Of a DNA stretch of 64,000 bases, positions 10,182 to 53,623 are shown in pieces. Every line of letters begins with the position of its first letter. Position 1 is the first letter of the stretch. The notes beneath the pieces were generated by a model that ran no database searches, was not told the DNA's origin, and saw only the letters and a program-made list of their open reading frames with translations. A program made the position numbers and the translations under genes. This DNA comes from Candidatus Abyssobacteria bacterium SURF_5 (lineage in GTDB: Bacteria > Abyssobacteria > SURF-5), in the NCBI GenBank assembly GCA_003598085.1, contig QZKU01000145.1:9123-73122 (forward strand). The letters are read 5' to 3'.

Positions 10182-10297
10182 GAGATATTCGATTATCGGG
10201 GGCCGCTTCTACATAGGCCGCCATTGGAGTATCCGCAGCTGTTATCCTGACAGGACCAGCGGGGAGCATCAATTGTCTACAGGGGGAGAAGTTTTCT

Positions 10298-12054: not shown

Positions 12055-12058
12055 GCGC

Positions 12059-23277: not shown

Positions 23278-23278
23278 T

Positions 23279-25288
23279 ATGGATGTAGTCGTCATTGCAT
23301 CAAATGAAAACAGCATTCAGGAATCTCTCCGGATGCTGCTCGGCGAACGATACATGGTTCTGGTGGCGCGCTCGCTCCCGCAGCTCATCAATATCGTAAA
23401 CGATCACCCGGTTGATGTGGTCATTCTCGATGAGTTCCTTGGGGCGGAGAACTGCGCCTGGGCGTTCGACCAACTGCGCTCGGTTTCGCCCGAGATTACC
23501 TGCATCGTGCTGGCGCTCCAGACCATATCCGAGGCGGCCAGCGAGCTGCGCGCCAAAGGCGCATACGATATCGTGAGCAAACCCTTTGACCGCGAGGTCC
23601 TCCTGACCGTTATCTCGCGGGCGGTCGAAAGATCGCGCCTGATGGCGCGGCTGGCGGCGGCAAAACAACCCGTCCGCACCACCGAACCGCTCCCCTTCGA
23701 CGCCGTCGAACCGTCGAGCGAGCGAAAGGAGATGCTCGATTCGCTGCGACGATTCCTGCGGGCCGTCACCGACGTGCTTGCGCCCGAGCGCCTGCATGCC
23801 CTCGTGCTCGATGCGGTCGTCGAGATGTTCTCGCTCAATAAGGCCGTCCTGCTCCTCTGGAACGAGGAAAAACAGCGGATGGTGATGAAGGCGGCGGTGG
23901 GCCTCCAGGTGACCGGCCTCGAAGGGTACGAGGCGCCGTGGAAAAGCCTGATGCAGTGGCTCCACCGGCACGACCAGATTCTCAATCTTGACGACCCGGC
24001 GCGGGAGGCCGAGCCGGGCGAGATGCTCGAAGTGCGGAAAGAAATGGCCCTGCTCCAAGGCCGCCTGTGCGTGCCGCTGACGGCAAAAGGAAAAATGAGC
24101 GGCGTGCTCGTGCTGGGCAGGAAGATAACCGGAAAACGCCTCTCGGACGTCGAGATCGAGTTCCTGTACCTGCTTTCCCAGCAGATCGCCGCAATCATCG
24201 AAAATGCCCGGCATCATCGCGCTGTCCTCGTACAGAAGGAACGATACAAAGACATCCTGCAGGGCGTTACTTCCGGCCTCATCGCGACCGATGCCGCCGG
24301 CAGGCTCCTTCTTCTGAATAAGGCGGCCGAGCAAATCCTGAAAGTAAAGGCGGCGGATGTCACCGGACATGACGTCCAGCGGATCGGCTCGATGTTCGCC
24401 GATATCGTCAATCGCACGTTGCGCGAAGGAAAATCGTTTTGCAGGCATGAGGTGACCGACCCGGCCACCAAAGCGCTCCTCGGCATCAGCACCTCGGTCT
24501 TGACCGACGACGCCGGGAAACCCGTCGGTGCGGTCGCGCTCTTCACCGATCTGTCCACCGTCAAGTCCCACGCCGGAATGGATGTCGATGAAGCATGGCA
24601 ACGCTGCGCGCTGTGCATGGCGCAGGAGATCAAGAACCCGCTGGTCGCCATCCGGACCTTCACCCAATTGTTTCCACAGAATTATGCGGACGAAAAATTC
24701 CGAACAGAATTTGCTCAAATTGCGCTCAAGGAGATAGATAAGCTCGATGCCGTCGTCGAGAAACTCCTTAAATTCTCTCAGCCGCTGCAACTTCGTCCGG
24801 AACAGGGCAACATCAATAACCTTATCGAAGAGGCCCTCAACCAGGCCCTGCAGGATGCGGACAAGCCAAACGTGGTGATTAACAAAAATTTCGAGACGGC
24901 CAACGGCATTGGAATGTTCGACAGGAATCTGCTCGGCGAGGCTTTTGTCCAGGTATTCCGGAATGCGCTGGATTCGATGCCTTCGGGCGGAACCCTGAAC
25001 ATCTCGGCTGCAACTCGAACCGGCGAGACCTCCGCCGCCGGCGCCCAGGGAAATGGGTCCTCGGTGCCGACCGTCACGGAAATTTGTATTTCCGACTCCG
25101 GCTCCGGAATCGCACCGGAGGATATGGGCAACCTGTTCAAGCCGTTCTATTCCAAGAAGGTCAAAGGGATGGGCCTCGGCCTGGCGATATCCCGGAAGAT
25201 CATTCAGGGTCATAAAGGCGACATAAGCGTCTTGAGCGAACCGAACCGAGGGACGACCGTGAAGGTAGTTTTACCACATGGAGCATAA
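23279..25288 (+). CDS. Histidine-kinase-like protein lacking the phospho-acceptor His (H-box MAQEIKNPL): degenerate N-terminal receiver, GAF, PAS, DHp-like, intact HATPase_c
   Basis: 669 aa. The receiver acidic pocket DD is replaced by SN (VVVIASNEN), but the Asp of ILDEF and the Lys of SKPF are retained. The DHp His is replaced by Gln. N-box, G1 and G2 are present. The start lies 2 nt after the upstream kinase stop. Confidence 0.85.
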   Translation: MDVVVIASNENSIQESLRMLLGERYMVLVARSLPQLINIVNDHPVDVVILDEFLGAENCAWAFDQLRSVSPEITCIVLALQTISEAASELRAKGAYDIVSKPFDREVLLTVISRAVERSRLMARLAAAKQPVRTTEPLPFDAVEPSSERKEMLDSLRRFLRAVTDVLAPERLHALVLDAVVEMFSLNKAVLLLWNEEKQRMVMKAAVGLQVTGLEGYEAPWKSLMQWLHRHDQILNLDDPAREAEPGEMLEVRKEMALLQGRLCVPLTAKGKMSGVLVLGRKITGKRLSDVEIEFLYLLSQQIAAIIENARHHRAVLVQKERYKDILQGVTSGLIATDAAGRLLLLNKAAEQILKVKAADVTGHDVQRIGSMFADIVNRTLREGKSFCRHEVTDPATKALLGISTSVLTDDAGKPVGAVALFTDLSTVKSHAGMDVDEAWQRCALCMAQEIKNPLVAIRTFTQLFPQNYADEKFRTEFAQIALKEIDKLDAVVEKLLKFSQPLQLRPEQGNINNLIEEALNQALQDADKPNVVINKNFETANGIGMFDRNLLGEAFVQVFRNALDSMPSGGTLNISAATRTGETSAAGAQGNGSSVPTVTEICISDSGSGIAPEDMGNLFKPFYSKKVKGMGLGLAISRKIIQGHKGDISVLSEPNRGTTVKVVLPHGA

Positions 25289-25289
25289 G

Positions 25290-26885
25290 ATGCATAAAAT
25301 TCTTGTGGTCGATGACGAATTAAGCGTGCGCGAAGCGTTGCGCATCATCTTGAAGGACAACTTCGAGGTTATCCTGAAGGATTCCGCCGAAGCGGGACTC
25401 GAATACTTGAATTTCAATGAAGTGGATCTCGTGTTTCTCGATATCCTGATGCCGGGGATGTCGGGGCTCGAGGCGCTCAAGATCATCAAAACGCGGCCGC
25501 AGCCGCCGGAGGTAGTCATCGTTACGGCGACGCGTACCGTAAAGAACGCCGTCGAGGCGATGAAGCACGGCGCATTCGAATACGTAACCAAGCCCTTCGA
25601 CGTCGATGAGATCAAGTTGATCGCCGAGCGCGGAATCGAAAATCATCACCTCGTCCTTGAGTGCTCATCGCTCAGGCAGCAGATGGAAAACGAGAAGGAG
25701 CGGTTTTACAAGGAGCTCGAGGGCAAGGTGCGCGAGCGGACGGCGGAGCTCGAGGAAGCCAACCGGAAACTGCGGGAGACACATGAGCAGCTGGTGCGGT
25801 CGGAAAAACTGGCGTCTCTCGGCGAGTTGGTCGCAGGGGTCGCCCACGAACTCAACAATAAGCTGCTGCCCGTCCTCGCGTACGCGCAACTGCTGAAAGA
25901 GCAGAAATTCCCCGACGGCATCCTGCGCTACGTCGATACCATTGAGCGTTCGGCCTCGGCCGCGGCCTCGGTCGTCAGTTCGCTGCTGAATTTCTCGCGT
26001 CCCTCAAGCGCCACCAGAAACCCGGTGGACCTGAACGCGACCATGCGGGAAACCCTTTCTTTGCTCGATTACAAGATCAAGGCCGGCCGCGTGCGCGTCA
26101 AAGTCGAGCTCGAGGAAAGGATTCCGCTTACCATGGCGGATGAAAAGCAGATCGCCCAGGTGTTCCTCAACATCATCAATAATGCGTTTCAGGCGATGGA
26201 GCCGAACGGAGGCGAACTGAACATTCGCTCCACGCGAAAAGGCGACAACATCTTCTTCACGTTCACCGATACCGGCTGCGGGATTTCCGAGGAACACATG
26301 CTGAAAATCTTCGACCCCTTCTTCTCAACGAAAGGCAGCGGAGGCACCGGCCTCGGCCTCAGCGTCTCGCACGGATTGATTAGCGCCCACAAGGGCGAGA
26401 TCACCGTAAAAAGCAAAGTGGGCAAGGGGACCACGTTCACCATTCGACTTCCCATCACGAGAGTCATGGAAGAAAGCGCTGTCAAGGAGGAACCGATCCG
26501 CTATACTCCTCAGAGGACAAAGCCCCGCGTTCTCGTCGCGGAGGATGATCCCGATTGCATGCTGGCGATCACCGATATTCTGAAGGCCGAACATGAGGTT
26601 ATTTCGGTGTGCAATGGCCAGGAGGCGGTGAAAAACCTGAAGAAGGAGAATTTCGACCTCCTGATTGTGGATTGCAGAATGCCGGGCTTGAACGGGGTGG
26701 AATTGTATCGGTGGCTCATCGAGAACAAGAGCGAGCTCCAGCGGCGCGTCATCTTCATGACCGGCGATATTTTCGTGCCCGAAATCAAGTCCTTCCTAGA
26801 GAAATCCGGCTGTCCGTACATCACGAAACCGTTCGTTATGGATGACTTCAAGCGAACGATTACCGCCGCTCTCACGGCGCCATAG
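25290..26885 (+). CDS. Hybrid histidine kinase REC-HisKA-HATPase_c-REC
   Basis: The N-terminal receiver carries DxxMPGMSG. The H-box reads VAHELNNKL. The C-terminal receiver carries LLIVDCRMPGLNG. The start was taken at the ATG at 25290, which has a GGAG ribosome-binding site and lies 2 nt after the upstream stop; the track start at 25278 overlaps. Confidence 0.9.
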   Translation: MHKILVVDDELSVREALRIILKDNFEVILKDSAEAGLEYLNFNEVDLVFLDILMPGMSGLEALKIIKTRPQPPEVVIVTATRTVKNAVEAMKHGAFEYVTKPFDVDEIKLIAERGIENHHLVLECSSLRQQMENEKERFYKELEGKVRERTAELEEANRKLRETHEQLVRSEKLASLGELVAGVAHELNNKLLPVLAYAQLLKEQKFPDGILRYVDTIERSASAAASVVSSLLNFSRPSSATRNPVDLNATMRETLSLLDYKIKAGRVRVKVELEERIPLTMADEKQIAQVFLNIINNAFQAMEPNGGELNIRSTRKGDNIFFTFTDTGCGISEEHMLKIFDPFFSTKGSGGTGLGLSVSHGLISAHKGEITVKSKVGKGTTFTIRLPITRVMEESAVKEEPIRYTPQRTKPRVLVAEDDPDCMLAITDILKAEHEVISVCNGQEAVKNLKKENFDLLIVDCRMPGLNGVELYRWLIENKSELQRRVIFMTGDIFVPEIKSFLEKSGCPYITKPFVMDDFKRTITAALTAP

Positions 26886-32063: not shown

Positions 32064-33014
32064 CTATTCGTGCGTTACGCTCGATTTGACCTGGTAATAA
32101 AGAACTCCATCCCGAAGGACTTGGTGCAGGAGATTTTCTTCGAGGAGTTTCTGCAGATGTTTCACTGCTTCATTTCGGTGAATTCCGAGCCCTTTCGAGA
32201 TGTCTTCGAGCGTGCATGGACGGCGTCGCAACAGAGCAAGCACTTCCTCAGTCACCCTTTGCTGCTCCGGCTCGGCCGGATGCCGGCCATATGGCGTTAT
32301 TACCTCAGCATTCTCAAAAAAATCGCAGATACGCGCCATTTCAGCGTCGGGCACCCTCTCGGCCCAGCCTTCCGCGGGCGGACGGATCACCGTGTTCAGT
32401 TGGAGCTTGTCCGCAACAATTCGCTCCGCACATTTTTTTATTCGATCAAGGGCGGGTGCGGACGTGTTGATGTTATTGACCAGAAACACTTCAAGCCATA
32501 GTTGTCCGGAATATTCCTTTCGGAAGAGAGAAAGTCCTTCAACGACCTGATCGAATTTCAATTCGGGAGCGGGCCGATTGATCTTCTGGAAAAGAGCTTC
32601 GTCGCCCGCATCGAGCGAGGGCACCACAAGGTCGGCCGGCAGAAGGTCCGCCCGCACCGCCTCATCCCATAAGAGCGATCCGTTCGTGAGGACGGCAACA
32701 GGAATCGCGCTCTTGTGCTTGATCGCTTTGATGAGCTTGCCGATTTCCGAGTGAAGCGTCGGTTCTCCCGAACCCGAAAGCGTTATATAGTCCGGCCGCT
32801 CGCCTCCTTCAAGCTTCCGCCAGAGCTGGCTCAAGATGTCCGAAAGCGGAACGTATTCTTTACGAGCAATGGTTCGACAAGTTGTCCGGCCTAGCTGACA
32901 GTATATGCAATCGAAGCTGCATGTCTTGAAGGGAACCAGATCAAGCCCCAGAGAGCGCCCCAACCGCCTCGAGGGAACCGGCCCAAAAACGTACCTGCAG
33001 TTTGGCTTCGTCAT
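32064..33014 (-). CDS. Radical SAM enzyme (CX3CX2C) with C-terminal winged-helix-like domain
   Basis: MTKPNCRYVFGPVPSRRLGRSLGLDLVPFKTCSFDCIYCQ carries the CxxxCxxC cluster, followed by SGSGEPT and LDAGDE. The C-terminal 60 aa or so are helix-turn-helix-like (CTLEDISKGLGIHRNEAVKHLQKLLEENLL). The start was taken at the ATG at 33014, which has a GGAGAG ribosome-binding site; the ORF track uses the GTG at 33038. Confidence 0.85.
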   Translation of the reverse strand: MTKPNCRYVFGPVPSRRLGRSLGLDLVPFKTCSFDCIYCQLGRTTCRTIARKEYVPLSDILSQLWRKLEGGERPDYITLSGSGEPTLHSEIGKLIKAIKHKSAIPVAVLTNGSLLWDEAVRADLLPADLVVPSLDAGDEALFQKINRPAPELKFDQVVEGLSLFRKEYSGQLWLEVFLVNNINTSAPALDRIKKCAERIVADKLQLNTVIRPPAEGWAERVPDAEMARICDFFENAEVITPYGRHPAEPEQQRVTEEVLALLRRRPCTLEDISKGLGIHRNEAVKHLQKLLEENLLHQVLRDGVLYYQVKSSVTHE

Positions 33015-33113
33015 CTCTCTCCGTAGTTGGGTGACCACCGACTATGAAATGGCCGCCTGAGCACAAGCGGCGCCCTCACCAGCCGGTTGGCTTCGCCAAC
33101 CCTGCCCCCTCGC

Positions 33114-33314
33114 TTACTGCTCCCTCGCCATAACCGAGCCGCACTTCGGACATTTGACCTGATAGCATGGCACTCCCCGCTCGTGAGTCGCTTTATGGCC
33201 GCAGTTGGGGCACACGCAATTGCCGCCGGGTCCCAGCCGGAAACCGCCGCCTCTTCCCATCCCGCCGCCCATCCCGCCGCCGCCTCCGCGGCGTCCCGAA
33301 CCTGTTCCAGTCAT
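33114..33314 (-). CDS. 66-aa glycine-rich protein with C-terminal C4 zinc-ribbon (CVCPNCG...CPKCG)
   Basis: A perfect AGGAGGA Shine-Dalgarno sits 5 nt upstream of the ATG at 33314. Translation is MTGTGSGRRGGGGGMGGGMGRGGGFRLGPGGNCVCPNCGHKATHERGVPCYQVKCPKCGSVMAREQ. It lies 100 nt upstream of the radical SAM gene on the same strand. The ORF track extends it to a TTG at 33347 that has no ribosome-binding site. Confidence 0.55.
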   Translation of the reverse strand: MTGTGSGRRGGGGGMGGGMGRGGGFRLGPGGNCVCPNCGHKATHERGVPCYQVKCPKCGSVMAREQ

Positions 33315-33455
33315 CTCAGTTCCTCCTCGCATACTTGGGTAACCCAAATGCTTGTTTAAAAGTTGCCGAGGCGTCCCTATATCAGCTTAACCTTCCCATC
33401 CAAAATTGAATAACGCCTCAGTCCGGCACATCGTTCTCCACTCACTCTCGTTCTG

Positions 33456-33471
33456 AGCATCAATAATGCCA
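33456..33471 (-). promoter_or_regulatory. Candidate sigma-54 promoter (minus strand TGGCAT-N5-GATGCT) upstream of the Gly-rich peptide gene
   Basis: The reverse complement of 33456-33471 is TGGCATTATTGATGCT. GG and GC are correctly spaced. The -12 element is ATGC rather than TTGC. Confidence 0.3.
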
Positions 33472-33865: not shown

Positions 33866-34258
33866 TTAGGAAGCCTCCTCACGAGGACATGCCAGCGCTT
33901 CCTCTACCGCCGCGAGAAATTTATCCGGATCGACGGGCTTATCAAACACCGCGGCCGGTTTTCTGACGGCGAGGTCGCGCCCGGCAAGGCCGCTGACCAC
34001 GATGATGGGCGTATGCTTCAGCTCCTTGTCTCTGGATAACTTGCGCGCGAAATCCGTGCCGGTCCTCTTCGGCATCAGAAGGTCGAGAATCACAAGATCC
34101 GGCTTTTCGCGGCGAGCCGCTTCGTAGGCCTCCTCCACGTTGTACGTCGGAATCGGTTGGTAGCCGTTCTTTCGCAAGAGCGTCTCGAAGAAGACCACTA
34201 CGTGTTTCTCGTCATCCAGAATCAGAATCTTCTTCTTTTCTTGATCGCCGTTCTTCAT
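33866..34258 (-). CDS. Stand-alone response regulator receiver protein
   Basis: 130 aa. ILILDDEKH, LDLLMPKRTG, IIVVSG and K are all present. It is a close paralog of the receiver at 48096-48659. Confidence 0.85.
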   Translation of the reverse strand: MKNGDQEKKKILILDDEKHVVVFFETLLRKNGYQPIPTYNVEEAYEAARREKPDLVILDLLMPKRTGTDFARKLSRDKELKHTPIIVVSGLAGRDLAVRKPAAVFDKPVDPDKFLAAVEEALACPREEAS

Positions 34259-34414
34259 TCGTTTATCCTTTCGTATGACCGGCAGCTCAGACCGGTTGAT
34301 GCCGAGTGATGATCTTTTGTCATGTTGCTCCTCCTCGAAGCCTTCCTTTCGCTGATCTCATGCCGATTCGTTTGCGATTGGGCGCACGGCGGAAATCCCG
34401 CCAGTTCTTGGATG

Positions 34415-35404
34415 TCACACTTCTTTCAGAATATCGTTTATGTAGTACTTGGAGTACAGAGCGCTCACCGGATTGTTTGCGAGCGACTTGTCTTTTACGA
34501 ACAGGGTGGACATGGGCGCCTCGCTGTATCGCGCGAAAATGCAGTCGCATCCCACGCACAGTCCCACCGCCGCGTTGATATCCGTCTTCAGGCTGTTCAG
34601 TACGCGCGCCTGCCCGATCGGATTGCAGCACATCCCTTCGACGGCCGTTATGGCATCATGCTGCGTCTGCCCCCCGATTCTGCAGCACACAGTGCTCACC
34701 TTGAAAAAGCGCCGGAGCAGGCGCGTGAGTATCTCGACTTCCTGAAACATCTCCACGCAGAAAGCGATCCCGATATGTTTGTATTCCATGCCGAGGCAGT
34801 AATAAATAAACTCGGCAATGCGACACAGCTTCCTGTCTGTCTCCGCGGATATATCCGCAGTGACTTCCATCGAATGCCGAAGGTCAGAGTACTCGTCCGC
34901 CAAGAAAAGGTCCTTCGTGTCATTCGTGCAACTCTTGTTCTCCATGCACGGACGATCGATACATTCCACACAATCGATCCTGTCCTTCTTCTGCGCGGAT
35001 TCTTCTACCGGCTCCCTGTCGAGCAGGATCGCCCTCACGCTCGAAGCAAGCGCGCCGGCCTGGTTCGATAATCCGAACCCTGTCTCCAAACGGCCGCTGA
35101 GAAGGGCGGAAAGGATATCCTCTACTTCAGCCGCCACGTTGTAAATGACTCTTATCCCGAATGAATCCGCCCTCTCGATAAAATCCTCTTCTATTGCGCC
35201 GCAGATGAAGAGATCGATGCGCAGATTTACCAGTTGCGCGAGCCGTTCTTCATCACTCATGCCGCCTGTATCTATGATTTTCCTCGAGACCACTTCATTG
35301 TCTTTAATGCTGACGAGCAACATCTGGTCCGAATAGATACACCGGGGAGATACCCGCGTGCCGAATAAGGGGATTGCAACTCTCACAATCTGGTTCCTGT
35401 TCAT
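34415..35404 (-). CDS. Fusion protein: N-terminal NifX/NifB-C-like (dinitrogenase FeMo-cofactor-binding fold) domain plus C-terminal cysteine-rich domain (DUF1847-like)
   Basis: The N-terminal 110 aa (RVAIPLFGTRVSP...IDLFICGAIEEDFIERADSFGIRVI) match the NifX-family fold pattern. The C-terminal 200 aa carry at least 14 Cys in CxxC/CC/CxC clusters (CVECIDRPC, CCRIGGQ, MCCNPIGQ, GLCVGCDC). The DUF1847 label is from memory and is not verified. Confidence 0.7.
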   Translation of the reverse strand: MNRNQIVRVAIPLFGTRVSPRCIYSDQMLLVSIKDNEVVSRKIIDTGGMSDEERLAQLVNLRIDLFICGAIEEDFIERADSFGIRVIYNVAAEVEDILSALLSGRLETGFGLSNQAGALASSVRAILLDREPVEESAQKKDRIDCVECIDRPCMENKSCTNDTKDLFLADEYSDLRHSMEVTADISAETDRKLCRIAEFIYYCLGMEYKHIGIAFCVEMFQEVEILTRLLRRFFKVSTVCCRIGGQTQHDAITAVEGMCCNPIGQARVLNSLKTDINAAVGLCVGCDCIFARYSEAPMSTLFVKDKSLANNPVSALYSKYYINDILKEV

Positions 35405-35500
35405 TCCCTCAGCGCGCGAAGCGCATGTCCTCCAACCGAATGAATTGCCGGCGCACTCGCTCTTCTCTTGCCCGCCGGAATTCCTTCCAAAAACAATTCG

Positions 35501-35516
35501 GGCAATAACTGTGCCA
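35501..35516 (-). promoter_or_regulatory. Sigma-54 promoter (minus strand TGGCACAGTTATTGCC) for the NifX-like/receiver operon
   Basis: The reverse complement of 35501-35516 is TGGCAC-N5-TTGC with exact -24/-12 spacing. It lies about 95 nt upstream of the ATG at 35404. A TCCGC-N5-GCGGA inverted repeat at 35590-35604 lies about 75 nt further upstream and is a candidate enhancer site. Confidence 0.6.
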
Positions 35517-35807
35517 AACCCCCGCGCCGTTGTTTCCGTCGCGGACGGAGCGGCAACATGCCCCCTTTATCGACGTTCACTGCATCTTCTCCGCAAAAAG
35601 CGGAGCGCTCGGGGACGCCGCCGGTGTTACATCGGGTGCTGCATGCAGCGCTGCACCGCAATAGTTCTTGATCGCGCGCTGCCCGCCCGCCCGTAAGACT
35701 GCGGCAACCCGTAAGCCGCCTTCGAAAAATTTTCTTTAGCGGAGCGACAGCCAGTGTCGATGTATTCCGCGGCATGACCTGCCGCGGCCGTGCGGAGCAT
35801 TTGACGG

Positions 35808-35823
35808 TGGCATAGTTTTTGCC
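35808..35823 (+). promoter_or_regulatory. Sigma-54 promoter TGGCATAGTTTTTGCC for the Hdr-like operon
   Basis: TGGCAT-N5-TTGC with exact spacing. It lies about 100 nt upstream of the ATG at 35922, which has an AGGAGG ribosome-binding site. An 8-bp-arm inverted repeat CCGCGGCA-tgacc-TGCCGCGG sits 20 bp upstream at 35767-35787. A TGCATGCA/GCAGCGCTGC palindrome pair sits at 35640-35654. Confidence 0.6.
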
Positions 35824-35921: not shown

Positions 35922-37061
35922 ATGGCTTCTGTTTCCCCGATGCTTGAAATAACCGACGCCATCATGGAGGTCGGCGGCAAGACTCTGAAGGTATGCATGC
36001 AGTGCGGCACGTGCACGGGAGTATGTCCCTGGAATCTGGTGGACGAATTCAGCCCGAGGCTCTTGATCCGGCTGGTCAGCCTGGGCATCGAAGGATATGA
36101 ACAGGACAGCCTGTGGAATTGCGTCACCTGCGCCACGTGCGTCACCCGGTGCCCCCGTGGAATCGATATCATCGATGTCATCAGATCGACGCGGAGCGTC
36201 ATGCTCGAGAGCGGAATCGTGCCGCCGGCCTATCGCGTGCCTCTCGCAAGCCTGCGCAATGAGGGGAATCCGTGGAGCTCTCCCCGCTCGGAACGCGCGG
36301 ATTGGGCGGCAAAATTGAATATTCCCGAGTTCTCCGAGGCGACCGAACATCTGCTTTTCGCCTGCTGCACCCATGCGTATGACGCCCGAAACAGGAAGGT
36401 CCTGAAGGAGACGGCCGAACTGCTTCTAAAAGGAGGCGCCTCCGTCGGCATTATCGGAACCGAGGAAAGCTGCTGCGGCGACCAGGCGCATAAATGCGGC
36501 GCTCTGGAAACATATACGGCGCTGCAGGAAGCCAATACCGAGCTTTTTGCCGCTCGCGGAGTCAGAAAGATCATCACCACGTCTCCTCATTGCCTGAATC
36601 TGTTCATCAAGGAGTATAAAGGCGAGTTCGATGCAGTCCATTACACGCAAGTCTTCGCGAAGCTCATCAAGGAGAAAAAGCTTGTTCCTGCAAAACCGGT
36701 CCCATTGAAGGTCGCCTATCACGATCCCTGCTACCTGGGCCGCCACAACAACATTTATGATGAGCCGAGAGACGTTCTCCGCAGCATTCCCGCACTGGAG
36801 TACGTGGAACTTCCCCGATGCAAGCAAAGGAGCCTGTGCTGCGGCGGAGGCGGAGGCGGCATCTGGTCTGAAATCGAAGTCGAAAAACGTTTCAGCGTGC
36901 TGCGCATACGGGAGGCGAAGGAAGCCGGCGCAAACGTGATAGCCACCGCGTGCCCGTTCTGCATGATCATGCTCGAGGACGGCCTGAAGGCTTCAGGCAT
37001 CGATGAGAGCGAGATGAAGATTCTCGATGTGAGCGAGTTACTCTATGAATCGGTCGAATAA
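35922..37061 (+). CDS. HdrD-like (Fe-S)-binding protein with two 4Fe-4S ferredoxin motifs and two CCG domains
   Basis: CMQCGTCTGVCP and CVTCATCVTRCP ferredoxin motifs. The CCG motifs are CCG...C and CCGGGGGG...CPFC. Confidence 0.85.
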   Translation: MASVSPMLEITDAIMEVGGKTLKVCMQCGTCTGVCPWNLVDEFSPRLLIRLVSLGIEGYEQDSLWNCVTCATCVTRCPRGIDIIDVIRSTRSVMLESGIVPPAYRVPLASLRNEGNPWSSPRSERADWAAKLNIPEFSEATEHLLFACCTHAYDARNRKVLKETAELLLKGGASVGIIGTEESCCGDQAHKCGALETYTALQEANTELFAARGVRKIITTSPHCLNLFIKEYKGEFDAVHYTQVFAKLIKEKKLVPAKPVPLKVAYHDPCYLGRHNNIYDEPRDVLRSIPALEYVELPRCKQRSLCCGGGGGGIWSEIEVEKRFSVLRIREAKEAGANVIATACPFCMIMLEDGLKASGIDESEMKILDVSELLYESVE

Positions 37062-37076
37062 AACGGCGGGGAAATC

Positions 37077-40000
37077 ATGAGCAGAGAATTTCCATTAAGA
37101 GAGGAACGAATCGGTTTCTATATCTGTCATTGCGGTATCAATATCGCATTCAAGGTCAGATGCGCTGAAGTAGCCGAGTATATCGGAACATTGCCCGGCG
37201 TCGCCGTCTCGCGCGATTACCTGTTCATGTGCTCTGATCCCGGGCAGGAGATTATCGAGAAAGACATCAGGGAGCTCGACCTGACGCGCGTGGTGGTCGC
37301 TTCCTGCTCCCCCCGCATGCACGAGCATACCTTCAGGGCGGCATGCGCGCGAGCCGGCCTCAACCCCTTCCGGGCATTTCATCATGTCTGCGTCCGGGAG
37401 CATGTATCCTGGGTCACTCTCGACGAAGACCAGGCCACCGAGAAAGCAAAACTGCTCGCTCGCGCCGGCATCAGGCGCGTGCGATATCAATCCGACCTCT
37501 TTCCCAAAACCTTCCCCGTCAATCCCAACACGCTCGTGGTCGGCGGCGGAATCACCGGAATGCAAGCGTCGCTTGACGTCGCAAAGGCAGGTTACAAGGT
37601 GTATCTCGTCGAGCGGCAGGCCACTATCGGCGGCCACATGCTCCAATACGACAAGACCTTCCCGACCATGGACTGCGCCGCCTGCATCGGTACGCCCAAG
37701 ATGGTCGCCGTCGGCCAGAATCCGAACATCGAAATTCTCTCCCTGAGCGAGGTCGAAGAGATCAGCGGTTTCGTCGGCAACTTCAAGGTCAAAGTGAGAA
37801 AGCACGCCCGCTACGTGAAAGCTGACAAGTGCACAGGCTGCGCCGAATGCACCAAGTATTGTCCCATCATCGTGCCGAATGAATGGGATGTGAACACGAA
37901 GCAGCGCAACGCCGTGTACCGGCCGTTCCCGCAAGCGGTCCCCATCACGTTCGCCATCGATAAAAAGGACAGGGGCCCCTGCGTCCAGACGTGTCCCGCC
38001 GGCACCAATGTGCAAGGCTACGTCACGATGATCCGAGAGGGCAAATACAAGGAAGCCCTCAAGATAATCATGGAAAACCTCCCGCTCCCGGGCGTGCTCG
38101 GCAGAGTCTGTCCGGCCCCATGCGAAAAAGAGTGCAGGAGAGGCGAAGTCGATGAGCCGGTTTCAATCCGGAACCTGAAGCGCTTCGCCGCCGACCAGGC
38201 GGATTGGGAAACGCTCGAACTGCCCGAAATCGATATGAAGCCGCCTGAGGAAAAGGTGGCGATCGTGGGATCGGGCCCGGCAGGCCTTGCCTGCGCGTAT
38301 TTCCTCGCCCGAAAAGGATATCATCCGACCGTCTTCGAGGCCTTGCCGGAGGTCGGCGGCATGCTGCGGGCCGGCATCCCCGATTACCGCCTGCCGCCCG
38401 AGGTGCTCAATCGCGAAGTGAATTATATCCGCCGCCTGGGAGTCGAGATCAAGACCAACGCTCCCATCGGCGGAGAAACAACAATCGAGAGCCTCCTCGC
38501 CAATGGCTTCAAGGCAGTGTTCTTGTCGACCGGCGCCCACAACGAATTCAAACTCGGTGTCGAGGGCGAAGACGCCGCAGGCGTGCTGAAAGGAATCTCG
38601 TTCCTGCGCGACGTGAATTTCTGCGCGAATGGAGAGGTGGGCAAGAAGGCCGTCGTTATCGGCGGCGGCGCGGTCGCCATGGACGTGGCCCGCGTCGCTC
38701 GGCGCAAGGGCGCCTCGGAAGTGCACGTCTATTGCCTTGAGAAGCGACACGAAATGCCCGCGTGGGTCGAGGAGATCGAAGCCGCCGAGGCCGAAGGAAT
38801 CGAGATTCATAATGCATGGGGCGTCAAACGGATATTGACGAACGACGCGAAAGTCAAGGGCATCGAGTTCAAGCGATGTACCGCGGTATTTGACGAAAAC
38901 AAGAGATTCAGTCCGCAGTACGATGATTCTGAAACCATAACCGAAAACTGCAATACGGTTCTGGTTGCAATCGGCCAGAGACCTGATCTGTCCTGCCTCA
39001 ACGGCTCGAAGGATGTCCAGCTTACCCGAAGAGGCCTTATTGCCGCCGATCCGGTCACCTTGCAGACCAGCAAGCCCGGCGTTTTTGCGGGCGGCGAAAT
39101 GTATTCCGGGCCCTCGCTTGTGGTGCAGGCGGTGGCGACCGGCAAGGAGGCCGCCATTTCCATCGAGCGCTACTTGAAGAGCGAAGACCTTGTTCTCGAC
39201 AGGCCCGAGCGTCCAAAGGGCGAGAACTGGGCCCCCATCCCTGAAGACGTCCAGAAGGCCGCTCGTGCGAAAATGCCCGAACTCGCGCCCGCTGACAGAG
39301 TGAACGGCTTCGTCGAAGTCGAGACGGGCTTCACCGAGGAGCAAGCCAGAGCCGAAGCCGCCCGCTGTCTCTCGTGCGGCGTGTGCTGCGAGTGCAAGCA
39401 GTGCGTGCCCGCTTGCGAGGCGAAGGCAATCGACCACGATGCCAAGGACGAAATCGTCACGCTCGACGTGGGCTCAATTATCCTGGCCACCGGCTTCGAC
39501 ATCATGGACCCGACGCCGATGCAGGAGTACGGCTACGGCAAATACCGCAATGTTCTGACAAGCTTGGAATTCGAGCGCCTCTCCAACGCCACGGGTCCCA
39601 CCTCCGGCAAAATCCTTCTCCGGGACCCGAACGACAGGTGGAACCACACCCGGCCCCCCAAGAGCGTCGCATTCCTGCACTGCGTCGGCAGCCGCGACAA
39701 AAACTATCACGACTATTGCTCGCGAACCTGCTGTATGTACGCGCTGAAAATGGCGCACCTGGTTAAGGACAAGTGCGGCCATGACACGCAGGTGTTCAAT
39801 TTCTACATCGATATGCGGTGCTTCGGAAAAGGACAGGAGGAGTTTTACCGCCGCATCCAGGATGAGGGCGTGAGGATGGTCCGGGGCAAGGCCGTCGAGG
39901 TGACCGATAAGGCGGAGGACCCGAGCGAAGAAGGAATGCTCATCGTACGGGCGGAAGACTCGCTGATCGGCAAAATGCTGAGGGTGCCGGTCGAGATGGT

Positions 40001-40508
40001 GGTTCTGTGCACGGCCATGGAACCGCGGCCGGACGCCCTGGAGGTGGCCAGAATCTTCGGCCTATCACTCAGCGCCGACGGCTTCTTCATGGAAGAACAT
40101 CCGAAGCTCGAGCCGGTCTCGACCCCAACCTCCGGCGTCTTCCTCGCCGGCGCTTGCCAGGGTCCGAAGGACATAACTGATTCAGTCGCGCAGGCAAAAG
40201 CGGCCGCCAGCGAAGCGCAGGCGCTTTCCACCCTGGGGAAAGTGATCGTCCCGCCGATGATAAGCCATATCGACGAAGACATCTGCATCGGCTGTCAAGT
40301 CTGCATCGGGTTGTGCCCGTACTCTGCGATCGAATTCGACGAATTCAAAAAGGTTAGCGTGGTGAATGAGGCTGTTTGTAAAGGATGCGGGAGCTGCGCC
40401 GCCTACTGCCCGAGCGGCGCCGCCGACATACGCCATTTCACCCAAAAACAGATTTTCGGTGAAATCGAGGGAATCCTCGTAGGAGCCAAGGAGACACGCG
40501 ATGAGTAA
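37077..40508 (+). CDS. Large HdrA-like flavoprotein fused to a GltD/NfnB-like NAD(P)H-binding FAD domain (HdrL-like)
   Basis: 1143 aa. The N-terminal HdrA FAD fold is VVGGGITGMQASLDVAKAGYKVYLVE, with several 4Fe-4S motifs. An internal glutamate-synthase-small-subunit-like region reads VAIVGSGPAGLACAYFLARKGYHPTVFEALPEVGGML. The C-terminal HdrA ferredoxin part follows. Confidence 0.85.
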   Translation: MSREFPLREERIGFYICHCGINIAFKVRCAEVAEYIGTLPGVAVSRDYLFMCSDPGQEIIEKDIRELDLTRVVVASCSPRMHEHTFRAACARAGLNPFRAFHHVCVREHVSWVTLDEDQATEKAKLLARAGIRRVRYQSDLFPKTFPVNPNTLVVGGGITGMQASLDVAKAGYKVYLVERQATIGGHMLQYDKTFPTMDCAACIGTPKMVAVGQNPNIEILSLSEVEEISGFVGNFKVKVRKHARYVKADKCTGCAECTKYCPIIVPNEWDVNTKQRNAVYRPFPQAVPITFAIDKKDRGPCVQTCPAGTNVQGYVTMIREGKYKEALKIIMENLPLPGVLGRVCPAPCEKECRRGEVDEPVSIRNLKRFAADQADWETLELPEIDMKPPEEKVAIVGSGPAGLACAYFLARKGYHPTVFEALPEVGGMLRAGIPDYRLPPEVLNREVNYIRRLGVEIKTNAPIGGETTIESLLANGFKAVFLSTGAHNEFKLGVEGEDAAGVLKGISFLRDVNFCANGEVGKKAVVIGGGAVAMDVARVARRKGASEVHVYCLEKRHEMPAWVEEIEAAEAEGIEIHNAWGVKRILTNDAKVKGIEFKRCTAVFDENKRFSPQYDDSETITENCNTVLVAIGQRPDLSCLNGSKDVQLTRRGLIAADPVTLQTSKPGVFAGGEMYSGPSLVVQAVATGKEAAISIERYLKSEDLVLDRPERPKGENWAPIPEDVQKAARAKMPELAPADRVNGFVEVETGFTEEQARAEAARCLSCGVCCECKQCVPACEAKAIDHDAKDEIVTLDVGSIILATGFDIMDPTPMQEYGYGKYRNVLTSLEFERLSNATGPTSGKILLRDPNDRWNHTRPPKSVAFLHCVGSRDKNYHDYCSRTCCMYALKMAHLVKDKCGHDTQVFNFYIDMRCFGKGQEEFYRRIQDEGVRMVRGKAVEVTDKAEDPSEEGMLIVRAEDSLIGKMLRVPVEMVVLCTAMEPRPDALEVARIFGLSLSADGFFMEEHPKLEPVSTPTSGVFLAGACQGPKDITDSVAQAKAAASEAQALSTLGKVIVPPMISHIDEDICIGCQVCIGLCPYSAIEFDEFKKVSVVNEAVCKGCGSCAAYCPSGAADIRHFTQKQIFGEIEGILVGAKETRDE

Positions 40509-40929
40509 GGAGTTCGAACCCACAATTGTTGCTTTCCTCTGCAACTGGTGCACGTTCACCGCTGCGGACCTCGCCGGCACGTCGCGCCTCAGTTATCCCG
40601 AGAACGTCAAGATAATCCGCATGATGTGCAGCGGCATGGTCGATCCGCTCTATGTTCTCAAAGCCTTCATGGAGGGGGCGGACGGCGTTTTCATCGGAGG
40701 ATGCTGGCCCGGCGACTGCCATTATATCAACGGCAACCTGAAGGCGCGCCGGCGAGTGGCGTTGCTTACGGAAATTCTGAAGCAGTTCGGAATCGAGGAG
40801 GACAGGTTCTGGCTGCGCTGGGTTGCCGCCAGCGACGGCGTCATGTTCCAGGAGTTCTCCAAACAGATGACTGAAAAGCTCCGACAAATGGGGCCGAGCC
40901 CGCTCAGTGTCAATCAAACAATCGCGTGA
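40501..40929 (+). CDS. MvhD-like (methyl-viologen-reducing hydrogenase delta subunit family) protein
   Basis: 142 aa with the MvhD-type Cys pattern (CNWC...C..GC...C). It overlaps the HdrL stop by 8 nt. Confidence 0.8.
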   Translation: MSKEFEPTIVAFLCNWCTFTAADLAGTSRLSYPENVKIIRMMCSGMVDPLYVLKAFMEGADGVFIGGCWPGDCHYINGNLKARRRVALLTEILKQFGIEEDRFWLRWVAASDGVMFQEFSKQMTEKLRQMGPSPLSVNQTIA

Positions 40930-40951
40930 GGATTCGCTGAGGAGAATTGAG

Positions 40952-42088
40952 ATGACGGAATACAGCAAACTGGTTGCTCAAGATGGTTCGATAAACAAAT
41001 CGCTGGCCTCTTTTTTCAGGACCATGCTCGAGAAGAATGTCGTGGACGCCGTCCTCGTGCCGGCCCACCAGAATCCAAAGGGAGTCATGCAGACGCTGAT
41101 TACCGCCCCGGAAGCGCTCGATGCCGTTGACCCCTTCGCGCCTGTAGCGCCGACGAATTCGGCAAGACTCGTGACCCGGCTCACGAACGTCCCCTCCGGG
41201 AGGCCGGTGGCGGTGGTGATGCGGTCGTGCGAGATACGGGCGCTCCTCGAACTGGTCAAACTCAAGCAGGCGAACGTCGACGACCTCCTTTTGATCGGAA
41301 TTGACTGTCTCGGCAGATACGAAAATGCCGATTACTTGAAATACGAACAAGGCGGCGCCACGACCGAGGACTTCCTCAAAGCCGCTTGCGGAGACAAAGG
41401 AACCAAAAGCGCCGACGGGTTCGACGTTGCCGTCGCCTGCCGGATCTGCGAATATCCGGCGGCAGACAATGCGGATGTCCGCCTCTGCGTCATTGGCGCC
41501 TCTCCGGGCGAGGTCTTTGTCGAGTGGGCCACGGAGAAAGGGCTGAATGCACGCAAGGCGATGGGACTCGAAGCGGAAGCAGGCCCGGCCGGCCGCGACG
41601 CGGCGGTGCAACAGATCAAGAAAACGAGAACCGCGCAACGAGACAAGGTGTTCTCCGATATGTATGAGCACGTCGGGAGCATGGAGAAGCTGCGGGATCA
41701 TCTGGCTGGTTGCATAAATTGCTATAACTGCCGCGCGGCCTGCCCCGTCTGTTATTGCAAAGAATGCGTCTTCGTCACCGATACCTTCCGCCACCCCGGC
41801 GACCAATACCTCTCATGGGGCGATAAGCGCGGCTTCATGAAGATGCCAACCGAGACAGTGCTGTTCCACCTGACTCGCATGACTCACATGAGCGCGCTGT
41901 GCGTGGGCTGCGGCCAGTGCTCGAGCGCGTGCCCGAATGATATCCATGTGACCGAGCTTTTCAGGTCGGTCGCCAACAGGACTCAGGCCAGATTCGACTA
42001 CCATCCGGGCAGATCGCTCGATGAGCCTCAGCCGCTGGCGGTGTTCTATGCGGAAGAGCTTACGGAAGTAACCGGACAAGTTAAGTAG
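40952..42088 (+). CDS. FrhB/FdhB-family flavin/Fe-S protein (coenzyme F420 hydrogenase beta-subunit-like)
   Basis: A C-terminal 4Fe-4S dicluster (CINCYNCRAACP, CVGCGQCSSACP) follows an N-terminal FrhB-like fold. The start was taken at the ATG at 40952, which has a GAGGAG ribosome-binding site; the track start at 40907 overlaps mvhD. Confidence 0.7.
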   Translation: MTEYSKLVAQDGSINKSLASFFRTMLEKNVVDAVLVPAHQNPKGVMQTLITAPEALDAVDPFAPVAPTNSARLVTRLTNVPSGRPVAVVMRSCEIRALLELVKLKQANVDDLLLIGIDCLGRYENADYLKYEQGGATTEDFLKAACGDKGTKSADGFDVAVACRICEYPAADNADVRLCVIGASPGEVFVEWATEKGLNARKAMGLEAEAGPAGRDAAVQQIKKTRTAQRDKVFSDMYEHVGSMEKLRDHLAGCINCYNCRAACPVCYCKECVFVTDTFRHPGDQYLSWGDKRGFMKMPTETVLFHLTRMTHMSALCVGCGQCSSACPNDIHVTELFRSVANRTQARFDYHPGRSLDEPQPLAVFYAEELTEVTGQVK

Positions 42089-42097
42089 GAGAAACCA

Positions 42098-45000
42098 ATG
42101 ACTGAGGAAAACGCTGTCGGAACAGTGCTCGTCGTGGGCGCCGGCATCGCCGGAATCAAATCCGCCCTCGAATTGGCCGAGACGGGTTATAAAGTTATCC
42201 TTACCGACAATTCGCCTTCTGTCGGCGGCATCCTGCAAAAGCTCGACCATCAGTTCCCAACCGACCACTGCGGAATGTGCAGGATGCTGCCGCTGGTCGG
42301 ACGCGAACACGCGTCGCAGCACTGCATGCGCAAAAGCCTGTTCCATGACAACATCGAGATTCTTCCGTTCACCGAGATCACATCCGTTAAAGGAGACGCA
42401 GGCGCCTACACAGTGGAGCTGCTCAGACGGGCGCGGCATGTCAATACCGATATCTGCAACGGACTCGGCAAGTGCATCGACGTGTGCCCGGTGGAAGCGC
42501 CCGACGAATTCAATCAGGGCCTTACCCGGCGCAAAGCCATCTACAAGCCTGTCCCTCATAATGTCCCCCAAATGCTGCTCATAGATATGCAAGCCTGCAC
42601 CAGGTGCGGCGAGTGCGTGAAGGCGTGTCCGGTGAACGCGATCGACCTGGAGGCGCAGGACGAAGCGAGCCTGGTCGAGGTGAATGCAATAATACTCGCG
42701 GCCGGCGCGACTCTCTATGATCCCGCCACAGATGATGACGCGAAAGCATATGCGGTCTCGCCCGACGTCGTCAGCTCGTTGGCCTTCGAGCGCATCTTGA
42801 GCGGATCGGGCCTCTACGACGGGACGATCCGCCGCCCGTCGGATGGCAAGCCCGCCAAACGCATTGCCTGGATTCAATGCGTCGGCTCCCGCAACCGCAG
42901 GAAGGGCCGAGATTATTGCTCGTCCATTTGCTGCATGTTCGCGCTCAAAGAGGCGGTGCTCGCCCATGAAAAGGGAGGGCCGGACACCGAGACAACCATC
43001 TTTTACATGGATATGCGCACCTTCGGGAAGGAGTTTTATCAGTACCGCGAGCGGGCCGAACGCGAATACGGCGTGCGCCTTGTTCGCTGCCGCGTTCAGA
43101 GCGTGTTGCGGGAGGCCGACGGCTCGCTGCTGGTCCGATACCTCGATCAGAAAACCGGAGAATTTGTCGAAGACTCCTATGACATGGTGGTGCTTTCGAC
43201 CGGTCAGGCGCCTTTCGAAGACCATCGCAGGCTCGCCGAATTGCTCGGCTTGGATCGCGCGCCCTCGGGACTGCTCCCCCTGCTCGACTTCGAGAAAGTG
43301 AAGCTGGTGAAGCCGGGAATCTTTATCTGCGGCTCGCTGATGGGGCTCACCGACATCAGCGAGGCCATCACCAGCGGGATCGCAGCGGCAGGTGAAACAT
43401 CGAAAATGCTTCTTGCCTCCGGGATCAAAAGGCTGGAAGACGAGCCGGCTCCGGAACGGCCGGTGGACAAACAGGCTCCGCTTGTATCGGTCGTTCTGTG
43501 CAGTTGTAAAGGAGTCAAGGCGCCCGAAGGGCTCGACCTCGAGCCGCTGATCTCGACCATCAAGAAATATCCCGGAGTGGGTGAAGCTCATCTCGTGGAG
43601 GCGCTGTGCCGGGAAGAGGGAGAGCAGGAGCTTAAGGAAATCCTCGAGCAGACAAAATGCAACCGGCTCATCATCGGAGCCTGCCTCCCGTACGTGTACC
43701 GGCAGCGGTTCAGGAAGCTGGCTCAAACCGCAGGTTTCAATCCGGCCCTGGTGGAGATATTTGATCTGTTGAGCGCGGCGAGACATGGCCTGCCGGAGAC
43801 AAACGGGACCGATTGGGTGCAGTTGGCTTTAGAGGAAATGAGCGCGCTGCTCGAAAAACTTAAGCTGGCGCAGGCGCTTCACTCTCATGCTCTGCCCATC
43901 CATCAGACGGCGCTCGTGGTCGGCGGCGGCGTCGCAGGTATGCGAGCCGCCCTCTCCCTTGCCGATCGAGGGATCAAAACACACCTGGTGGAAAAATCCG
44001 ACCGGCTCGGCGGGCATGCGGCCAATGGATTGCATTACACGATTGACGGATTAGACCCCGCCGGCCTGGTCTCCGAACTGAACCGGAAAATCGAGGAGCA
44101 GCGGAACCTGACAGTCCATTTGAACAGCGAGATTATTGGCTCCAAGGGTGCGCTCGGACGCTTCACTACCGAAATCCGCAGCAGCGACAGCAACCAAAAA
44201 CTCGAGCACGGCGCGGTGATCATAGCCACCGGCGGTCATGAAGCCAAAACCACTGAATACGCCTACGGCCAGAGCGAGCGCGTTGTGACCCAGGTTGAAC
44301 TGGAGGAGCGACTGACAGCCGGGGAACTCGATGCGGCAACTCTGGAGAACGTGGTGATGATTCAATGCGTCGGCTCGCGGGAGAAAGGCGCGCGCGAGTA
44401 CTGCAGCCGCATCTGCTGCGCGGCCGCATTGAAGAACGCATTCAAGATCCTTGAGAAGAATCCTGCGGCCCGCATCTACATCCTCAATCGGGACATGATG
44501 ACCTACGGCTTCCTCGAGAAATACTATACCAGGGCGCGAGGCGAAGGGATCATGTTCATCAATTATGAACTCGATCAGAAGCCGCAGGTGGAGATCGTTG
44601 ACGACAAGCCGCTCGTGAAATTCACCGATCCGGTCCTCCAGATGCCGCTCGAGGTGACCGCCGATCTGCTGGCGCTCGCCACCGGCATACAGCCCCCTTC
44701 ATCCAACGAACAGCTTGCCCAAAGCTTCGGCTTGCCGCTCACGTCGGAAGGCTTCTTTCAGGAGGCCGATTCGAAATGGCGGCCGGTCGAATTCAAGAAG
44801 CTGGGCGTCTTTCTCGCGGGCACGGCGCACAGCCCGCTGCCACTGAACGAATCGCTCATGCAGGCTGAGGCCGCGGCGCAGAAAGCCTACGCCCATATCT
44901 CCCGACGCACGATTCAAACGGCACGAGCCGTATCCAAAGTGCACGACGCCATCTGCGCCCGCTGCCAAATATGCGTGGAAATCTGCCCGTACAATGCGCG

Positions 45001-45705: not shown

Positions 45706-45706
45706 A

Positions 45707-53592: not shown

Positions 53593-53623
53593 GTGTTACA
53601 TTCTCCGTGAGGTCACACGACCC

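Follow-up and report, generated by a model that had tools for sequence, protein, structure and literature searches.

A candidate redox-responsive bidirectional sigma-54 unit joining a NifX-like/DUF1847 fusion gene to an Hdr/Mvh-like operon in Candidatus Abyssobacteria bacterium SURF_5

The window analyzed here is a stretch of 64,000 nt from Candidatus Abyssobacteria bacterium SURF_5 (contig QZKU01000145.1), and all coordinates refer to this whole stretch unless another locus is named. Two operons diverge from a short intergenic region in it. One encodes a fusion of a NifX-like domain to DUF1847, followed by a single-domain receiver, and the other encodes an Hdr/Mvh-like set of redox proteins. 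We propose that they form a bidirectional sigma-54 unit, in which an OrpR-type redox-sensing activator would act from a shared central site on both the fusion and the Hdr arm, with the fusion protein serving a CCG-domain complex. Taken as a whole, this reading appears reasonably probable from sequence elements, domain architecture, and conservation and geometry across phyla. Conservation gives good support to its regulatory part, in which an OrpR-type activator is paired with two divergent sigma-54 promoters. The elements of the proposed unit are as follows.

33866-34258, minus strand: single-domain response regulator REC130, 130 amino acids (aa), Response_reg E 1e-16
34415-35404, minus strand: fusion gene, an open reading frame (ORF) of 329 aa with a NifX-like domain (aa 1-110), a linker (aa 113-140) and DUF1847 (aa 145-329)
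35502-35516, minus strand: sigma-54 -24/-12 element TGGCACAGTTATTGC, putative promoter of the fusion/receiver operon, exact TGGCAC-N5-TTGC
35589-35605, no strand assigned: perfect 17-bp palindrome CTCCGC-TTTTT-GCGGAG, 73 nt upstream of the -24 element
35636-35667, no strand assigned: conserved central block, GAACTATTGCGGTGCAGCGCTGCATGCAGCAC on the minus strand, aligned with loci L001 and L002, candidate upstream activating sequence (UAS)
35808-35822, plus strand: second sigma-54 element TGGCATAGTTTTTGC, differing from the consensus at one position, with the HdrD-like gene about 100 nt downstream
35922-46585, plus strand: Hdr/Mvh-like operon with HdrD-like, HdrA-fusion (1143 aa), MvhD, Fer4 protein, HdrA-like (1033 aa), HdrC-like and HdrB-like genes (Pfam)
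46619-48085, plus strand: PAS histidine kinase (Pfam), 34 nt after the preceding gene
48096-48659, plus strand: single-domain receiver REC187, 187 aa (Pfam), 10 nt after the kinase gene
48772-50151, minus strand: sigma-54 activator with PAS, AAA+ and HTH_8 domains, C55-x-D57-x6-C64-x3-C68 and a GAFTDA loop
50200-50214, minus strand: sigma-54-like element TGGCACGATCGATGC, 48 nt upstream of the activator gene

In the proposed mechanism, the PAS activator (48772-50151) would hold a redox-sensitive [4Fe-4S] cluster and bind a palindromic site midway between the divergent sigma-54 promoters. When the cell is reduced, the activator would turn on both promoters. The minus-strand promoter would then drive the NifX-like/DUF1847 fusion gene and the single-domain receiver, and the plus-strand promoter would drive the Hdr/Mvh-like operon, which ends with the genes for the PAS kinase and the second receiver. 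The activator gene would boost itself via its own sigma-54-like promoter. As a cluster carrier, an assembly factor or a redox partner, the fusion protein would assist the CCG-domain (HdrD/DsrK-type) complex that is regulated with it.

The comparison set comprised 80 loci carrying a homologue of the fusion gene, from at least seven phyla, and the flank considered for each related locus was 6 kb. The fusion architecture was retrieved in 532 protein matches in metagenomes, nearly all of full length, and in 152 loci of species-representative genomes. Record titles of the fusion loci include Abyssobacteria, Poribacteria, Planctomycetota, Zixibacteria, Ignavibacteria, Acidobacteriota, Gemmatimonadota and others. 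The fusion gene, the sigma-54 promoter pair and the activator together are an undescribed gene module that is widespread in uncultured bacterial phyla.

Divergent sigma-54 promoters, their central site and an OrpR-like activator

The window was scanned with the sigma-54 consensus TGGCAC-N5-TTGC, in which the GG and GC dinucleotides lie 10 nt apart. The sole exact match in 64 kb is TGGCACAGTTATTGC on the minus strand, and 97 nt separate its end from the ATG at 35404. A preliminary description of this DNA had placed a near-consensus sigma-54 promoter at 35501-35516, and the exact match TGGCACAGTTATTGC(C), read from 35516 to 35501 on the minus strand, bears this out. The second element, TGGCATAGTTTTTGC, forms with the minus-strand promoter a 17-nt inverted repeat (88%, 291 nt apart) that points the two promoters outward. 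The intergenic region was aligned with those of the closest relatives of the window, L001 and L002 (the latter from SURF_17). This alignment contains three conserved islands, which correspond to both promoters and a central block, and the remaining spacer is not conserved. The plus-strand element is nearly invariant in L001 and L002.

Both sites are also found far beyond these relatives. A sigma-54 site lies upstream of the fusion gene in 72 of the 80 loci (55 at ≤1 mismatch), against a background of 0.10 forward sites per 430 nt (0.03 at ≤1 mismatch), and a reverse-strand site lies farther upstream in 67 of 78 loci. The promoter is thus kept in 72 of 80 loci where about 0.1 would be expected per 430-nt region, and the earlier proposal that the fusion/receiver operon is sigma-54 driven is supported. 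The coupling of the fusion protein to the Hdr-like operon, which had also been suggested, is seen here as a pair of divergent sigma-54 promoters, separated by about 290 bp that include a conserved block, together with an OrpR-like activator.

In the window, the GG dinucleotides of the two -24 elements are 137 nt and 157 nt away from the central block. The related loci have a family palindrome, TGCAAC-N5-GTTGCA, between their promoters. Of 77 loci, 49 carry it with ≤1 mismatch, and the count rises to 61 when ≤2 mismatches are allowed. Its density is 1.63 per kb between the promoters and 0.006 per kb elsewhere, an enrichment of about 270-fold, and its centre is separated from the -24 elements by medians of 196 and 190 nt. 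The central blocks of L001 (TGCAAT-GCAAC-GTTGCA) and L002 (TGCAGC-GCAAC-GTTGCG) match this palindrome well. The corresponding block in the window, at 35660-35644, reads TGCGGT-GCAGC-GCTGCA, with the right half-site kept, and the window block contains the perfect 12-bp palindromes TGCAGCGCTGCA and GCTGCATGCAGC. The block at 35636-35667 is therefore a probable activator-binding site (UAS), judged from its alignment with these relatives.

An inverted repeat TCCGC-N5-GCGGA upstream of the promoter had been singled out earlier. The repeat is present, and is perfect over the 17 bp at 35589-35605, but it is not conserved even in the two closest relatives and does not occur in the other loci. As a conserved operator it was rejected, and it is kept as a window-specific element. 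It is not significant alone, because by our estimate about 0.1 perfect 6+5+6 palindromes are expected in such a region by chance. Its core, CGCTTTTTGCG, resembles the Desulfovibrio OrpR site GGGCGYRTTTTGCGCCC (PMC8359166). At the position of this palindrome, L001 has TTTTC-N6-GAAAA and L002 has CTTCG-N4-CGAAG. With three sequences only, the occurrence of differing short inverted repeats at roughly the same place may be due to chance. An Rfam search of the window returned nothing at gathering score.

The only sigma-54 activator gene in the window converges on the end of the Hdr operon, kinase and receiver genes, and its product has no receiver domain. Its architecture is that of OrpR (DVU2106) of Desulfovibrio vulgaris Hildenborough, a PAS/AAA+/HTH sigma-54 activator (Fievet et al. 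2014, 2021; PMC8359166, PMC3897727). The redox-sensitive [4Fe-4S] cluster of the OrpR PAS domain needs C52, C61 and C65, with Asp or Glu conserved at position 54 (PMC8359166). OrpR activates two divergent sigma-54 orp operons via a 17-bp palindrome, only at low redox potential (PMC8359166), and IHF is a co-factor in this regulation (PMC3897727). The window activator has C55, D57, C64 and C68 at a spacing identical to that of the OrpR Cys motif, and its GAFTDA loop is the sigma-54 contact loop of DVU2106 (PMC4641369). In about 70 of the 80 loci, the fusion gene has an ortholog of the activator gene (57-80% identical) some 700 nt away. The motif C-x-[DE]-x6-C-x3-C is present in 63 of 64 activator orthologs and GAFTDA in all 64, and an 80%-identical homologue is named 'OrpR' by NCBI. 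The activator is thus predicted to be redox-sensing, with a [4Fe-4S] cluster on Cys-x-Asp-x6-Cys-x3-Cys.

The module shares further features with the OrpR/orp system. Both have two divergent sigma-54 operons (co-activation is known in Desulfovibrio and would be expected here), a 17-bp palindrome of 6+5+6 geometry (a bound site there, enriched family-wide here) and target genes for NifX-like ('Di-Nase') domain proteins. The two systems also differ in several respects. The palindrome here is TGCAAC-N5-GTTGCA, whereas that of Desulfovibrio is GGGCGYRTTTTGCGCCC, and one central site is found here, whereas two sites flank the regulator gene in Desulfovibrio. The cargo here is a NifX-DUF1847 fusion with a USP-like protein or a receiver, opposite a CCG-type redox complex, and no MinD/Mrp-type P-loop ATPase (Orp3, Orp4, Orp9 or MrpORP) was found in the two operons of the window. 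The activator gene is apparently sigma-54 dependent here and orpR is sigma-70 dependent. Moreover, the module here occurs in at least seven phyla, mostly in uncultured bacteria. By analogy, the module would work like the OrpR/orp system, but it is not an orp operon.

Sigma-54-like sites were found 33-82 nt upstream of the activator genes in the window, in L003-L006 and L008, and in a further SURF_17 locus, L082. TGCAAC-type half-sites lie beyond the sigma-54-like site of the activator gene in the window and in SURF_17. These sites and half-sites suggest that the activator likely regulates itself positively.

A second OrpR-family activator, 45-50% identical, follows the first one in some Zixibacteria and Ignavibacteria loci (L019, L020, L021, L027, L032, L037 and L044), with the same Cys motif in most. 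In L020 (positions 9194-12526 of that locus), it heads an orp-like cluster consisting of two NifX-like genes, an unknown gene, a DUF5320 gene and a zinc-ribbon gene, the last homologous to the 77-aa protein of the window.

Among the loci compared, the context of an Hdr operon plus REC130 is found only in the window, L001 and L002. The fusion proteins of these three form a clade sister to copies linked to Qrc genes (L003-L008), and two genomes carry both copies (L001 with L008, L002 with L004). On this phylogenetic and contextual pattern, the module in the window is seen as a lineage-specific duplicate rewired to an Hdr/Mvh-like operon. The same Hdr/Mvh-like gene order occurs in SURF_17 (L002 and L082). 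The activator gene of L082 (86% identical) lies on the opposite strand at the end of the Hdr operon, kinase and receiver genes, as in the window, and a second SURF_17 activator paralog (79% identical) adjoins the Qrc-linked fusion copy. The window activator is 100% identical to a database protein of SURF_5. A second SURF_5 activator (78% identical) is located on a 16.3-kb contig, and a second fusion homologue on a contig of equal length. The window contains neither a second fusion gene nor a USP-like gene. Each divergon thus appears to have its own activator, which supports the assignment of the window activator to the promoter pair of the window.

Receivers, kinase and a possible phosphorelay

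The preliminary description had also named a stand-alone receiver after the fusion gene, and REC130 is indeed present there. L001 and L002 show the same gene order after the fusion gene, with REC130 homologues 78% and 75% identical. No terminator-like site or promoter was found in the 156-nt gap between the fusion gene and REC130, and the two genes are probably co-transcribed. A 22-aa ORF in this gap overlaps REC130 by ATGA and has a strong Shine-Dalgarno sequence, but neither L001 nor L002 has kept it, and it was not retained as a gene. In most related loci, a protein of 176-199 aa follows the fusion gene (73 of 80; e.g., 7058-7588 in L034, 6975-7574 in L004 and 7097-7645 in L020). It has no Pfam or NCBIfam match and looks USP-like by eye. 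In the clade of the window, REC130 takes its place.

On the other arm, the kinase gene and REC187 are probably the tail of the Hdr operon, because the gaps before them are only 34 nt and 10 nt. This arrangement after the Hdr operon is kept in SURF_17, and a pair consisting of a kinase and a REC187-like receiver adjoins the fusion gene in L010 and L014. With the kinase and both receivers encoded within the two sigma-54 operons, they would be co-expressed with the rest of the system.

REC130 and REC187 had been described as close paralogs. They are each other's best match among the receivers of the window (E 2e-23), as such a description would have it, but with only 33% identity their relationship is distant. 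The best NCBIfam match of both is DVU0259_DivK (NF045717), with 118.5 bits for REC130 and 76.9 bits for REC187 against a cut-off of 160. By inspection, REC130 has the residues typical of a phosphorylatable receiver (D15/D16, D59, S89 and K107).

A shared phosphorelay was earlier proposed as the coupling between the two arms. As the main control of the system, it would have the PAS kinase phosphorylate both REC130 and REC187 and so link the metallocluster protein to Hdr expression or assembly. The location of the kinase and both receivers in the two divergent operons, the mutual best match of the receivers and their common affinity to the DVU0259 family, the typical receiver residues of REC130, the kinase/receiver pairs beside the fusion gene in L010 and L014, and the layout kept in SURF_17 are all consistent with this proposal. 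However, the receivers have no output domain and are just 33% identical, and the sole sigma-54 activator present senses via a PAS domain. In the 73 loci with the USP-like gene, moreover, REC130 is absent, yet the sigma-54/activator architecture is kept. Since the activator has no receiver domain, the phosphorelay would not be the primary switch, and the divergent promoters with the conserved block provide the coupling instead. We therefore regard the phosphorelay as an unlikely, though not negligible, candidate for the main control. It may at most be a modulator of the system.

Three consecutive sensor kinases are encoded elsewhere in the window (20731-26885, plus strand), upstream of an MMPL transporter. 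Their architectures are 7TM-GAF-PAS-HK, REC-GAF-PAS-HK and REC-HK-REC, where 7TM denotes seven transmembrane segments, REC a receiver and HK a histidine kinase domain. Their receiver domains are 24-32% identical to REC130 and REC187.

The fusion protein and its proposed link to CCG-domain complexes

The true start of the fusion protein is probably the GTG at 35386, which gives 323 aa. This start is favoured because homologues begin with MRVAIPLFG, aligned to residue 7, and because a ribosome-binding sequence, AGGA, stands 8 nt in front of it. With the 302-aa product in the public JGI annotation, the NifX-like fold would lose its first beta-strand. In the numbering of the 329-aa ORF, 14 of the 16 Cys are found from residue 145 on, in agreement with the at least 14 Cys reported earlier for the second domain. 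Residues 113-140 are predicted to be disordered.

A domain search of the Cys-rich C-terminus, the check put forward in the preliminary description, identified DUF1847 (PF08901) at residues 173-301 (E 1.2e-31; 109.9 bits against a gathering threshold of 25). The fusion and stand-alone DUF1847 proteins have in common a Cx2Cx4Cx5C head (residues 145-159) and the AFC, VCCK, CNP and GLC motifs. The head belongs to DUF1847 and not to the linker, because stand-alone members start with the same motif (MKCxxCxxxxCxxGxxC). The whole domain is thus present in the fusion, the difference being that DUF1847 stands here behind a NifX-like domain and a disordered linker. Stand-alone members, which are uncharacterised, have GLCxGHD, whereas the fusions vary at the H position. 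DUF1847 is a small family, with 770 representative clusters among 1.84 billion proteins. An alignment and profile (A1) built from 29 members of the fusion family contains nine invariant Cys, C145, C148, C153, C159, C194, C216, C241, C260 and C283. In the AlphaFold model, the later ones are located at the C-terminal strand ends of a small parallel sheet, which in such folds would be the usual cofactor site. Foldseek searches with DUF1847 gave generic Rossmann-like matches only. The full-length model yielded E ≥0.002, and the domain model, which has a predicted local distance difference test (pLDDT) score of 82, yielded E ≥0.01.

The N-terminal domain had been described as a NifX/NafY-like FeMo-cofactor-binding fold. 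For the single window sequence, the Nitro_FeMo-Co model (PF02579) is matched over positions 4-93 of 94 with 19.0 bits, below the cut-off of 26.3. The fold itself is upheld by profile and structure. Many fusion homologues carry a precomputed PF02579 match, and profile A1 matches TM1290 (E 2.9e-6) and PH0822 (E 9e-6) among PDB sequences. The AlphaFold model has pLDDT >90 over residues 10-100, and Foldseek matched it to PH0822 (E 7e-9, TM 0.85, root-mean-square deviation 1.8 A). The fold also matches TM1816, MJ0327, NifX, NafY and the Desulfovibrio orange protein (ORP), with TM 0.80-0.85 to PH0822, TM1816 and MJ0327. The sole NCBIfam match of this domain, a weak one (E 5e-4), is to the C-terminal NifX-like domain of MrpORP, which binds a [3Fe-4S] cluster (PMC6345978). 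Compared to the PF02579 family, which its family profile matches at the sequence level, the domain here has motifs of its own (RVSPRC and VCGG) and is fused to DUF1847 without nif context. The term 'FeMo-cofactor-binding' can therefore be kept as a fold label only, since no nif gene was seen among the neighbours examined.

The fusion protein is predicted to bind metal or Fe-S clusters via eight or nine invariant Cys. From the Cys pattern, the NifX-like fold and the pairing with CCG genes, we infer that it is a metal-cluster protein serving CCG-type complexes. In the window, CCG domains were identified in the HdrD-like (E 2.5e-27) and HdrB-like (E 8e-26) proteins. A DsrK/HdrD-type CCG gene lies within the 6-kb upstream flank in 68 of the 80 loci, and the first divergent ORF encodes a DsrK/HmcF-type CCG protein of about 479 aa in 54 of 72 loci. 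In these canonical loci, TmcC/HmcE-like and HmcB-like genes usually follow the CCG gene, with scores below the equivalog cut-offs. The canonical divergent operons thus encode DsrK/HmcF-like, TmcC/HmcE-like and HmcB-like subunits, like the transmembrane CCG-subunit complexes of sulfate reducers (DsrMKJOP, Hmc and Tmc). In contrast, the divergent operon in the window encodes a cytoplasmic Hdr/Mvh-like set and no membrane complex. Single-domain receivers nearby are a further likeness. The best match of REC130 is the DVU0259 receiver family, and DVU0259 presumably lies beside the tmc genes in the D. vulgaris genome. To our knowledge, sigma-54/OrpR-type control of CCG-subunit redox complexes has not been described.

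CCG complexes have a central part in how methanogens, sulfate reducers and many uncultured anaerobes conserve energy. This locus supplies a testable circuit for such complexes in candidate phyla, in which an Fe-S redox-sensing sigma-54 activator would act on two promoters through one central site. It would give DUF1847 a first functional context and carry OrpR-type control beyond Desulfovibrio, into at least seven phyla and to a different cargo. The circuit is amenable to reconstitution in E. coli, as the orp promoters were. We know of no established maturation route for the non-cubane clusters of CCG domains. A more specific and speculative role, to which we give quite a low likelihood, is that the NifX-DUF1847 fusion, and by extension DUF1847, is dedicated to assembling or inserting the unusual non-cubane [4Fe-4S] clusters that CCG domains hold (HdrB, HdrD, DsrK, HmcF and TmcB-type), expressed with its client complex by an OrpR-like Fe-S redox sensor.

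Several observations weigh against the proposed bidirectional unit. On the regulatory side, no rpoN gene was seen in the window. The best NCBIfam matches of the activator, PrdR and AtoC, are all below cut-off, with no OrpR model matched, and its likeness to OrpR comes from the published motif and architecture. The window block has 4 mismatches to TGCAAC-N5-GTTGCA as a 17-mer and is thus degenerate, and activator binding there is proposed by alignment only. As for the fusion protein, a sequence-profile search against PDB found no solved relative of DUF1847, and no literature was found on DUF1847, PF08901, COG4887 or IPR014997. Sequence identity between the HdrD-like protein of the window and the canonical CCG protein is only 22-24%. 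Furthermore, the Qrc-linked sister copies L003-L008 have no CCG homologue in the 6-kb flank, their first divergent genes being of Qrc type, and the CCG link is therefore not universal.

In L004, the Abyssobacteria sister module diverges from QrcA and a molybdopterin oxidoreductase (2363-5434 of that locus), not from a CCG protein. Next to the sister activator gene lies a gene (9538-9897) for a YedF-like selenium or sulfur-transfer protein.

The fusion protein might also be a regulatory partner of the activator, as a second redox or metal sensor that acts as a co- or anti-activator like NifL with NifA, and not a CCG maturation factor or redox partner. The fusion and activator genes are adjacent in about 70 of the 80 loci, usually in one sigma-54 operon with the small USP-like protein, and many invariant Cys would suit sensing. 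In the window and SURF_17, however, the fusion gene is 13 kb from the activator gene, and the equally strong conservation of the divergent CCG-complex operon is not needed by such a model. We judge this role rather improbable.

The sigma-54-like motif could in principle be a chance match, with the genes using an unrecognised sigma-70-type promoter. One match to a 15-mer consensus can occur randomly, and the window holds 8 sites at ≤1 mismatch against 3.9 expected. The match is, however, exact and correctly placed, it recurs across phyla along with a second promoter, a palindrome between the two and a matching activator, and no sigma-70-like site was found in the intergenic region. A chance match is strongly disfavoured and very improbable. 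Sigma-54 control is classic for nif genes and the fold matches NifX and NafY, but a genuine FeMo-cofactor carrier in an operon for nitrogenase maturation is extremely improbable, with no nif gene among the neighbours examined in the window or in the annotated related loci, a non-nif MrpORP domain as the closest sequence match and non-nif proteins (PH0822, TM1816 and MJ0327) as the best structural matches.

Neighbouring genes in the window

Two genes beyond REC130 are loosely associated neighbours of the proposed unit.

33114-33347, minus strand: Gly-rich zinc-ribbon protein, 77 aa (Pfam)
32064-33038, minus strand: radical-SAM/HTH protein with a C-terminal winged-helix domain (Pfam)

Homologues of the zinc-ribbon gene are found within 6 kb of the fusion gene in 8 other loci, and those of the radical-SAM gene in 11, from distant phyla. 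These loci include L008, L012, L028, L048, L051, L059 and L080. The recurrence suggests a loose functional link to the fusion gene, possibly as a maturase. Within the 518-nt non-coding gap beyond REC130, the sequence TGGCATTATTGATGC (33457-33471, minus strand) shows, by eye, the correct GG-N10-GC spacing about 110 nt upstream of the zinc-ribbon gene. The zinc-ribbon and radical-SAM/HTH genes may be transcribed from it as an additional sigma-54 promoter.

On the far side of the activator gene, an ORF of 1746 aa (54389-59629, minus strand) has a DnaA-type AAA+ ATPase domain at residues 37-188 (E 1e-49, two stretches). Beyond this domain it has no confident Pfam match, and it encodes an unusual giant DnaA-domain protein. 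The genes at 51914-54373 on the minus strand encode a LarC nickel-insertion protein (E 5e-137), an AIR-carboxylase/LarB-like protein and a cytidylyltransferase-like protein, and are probably a nickel-pincer cofactor gene set.

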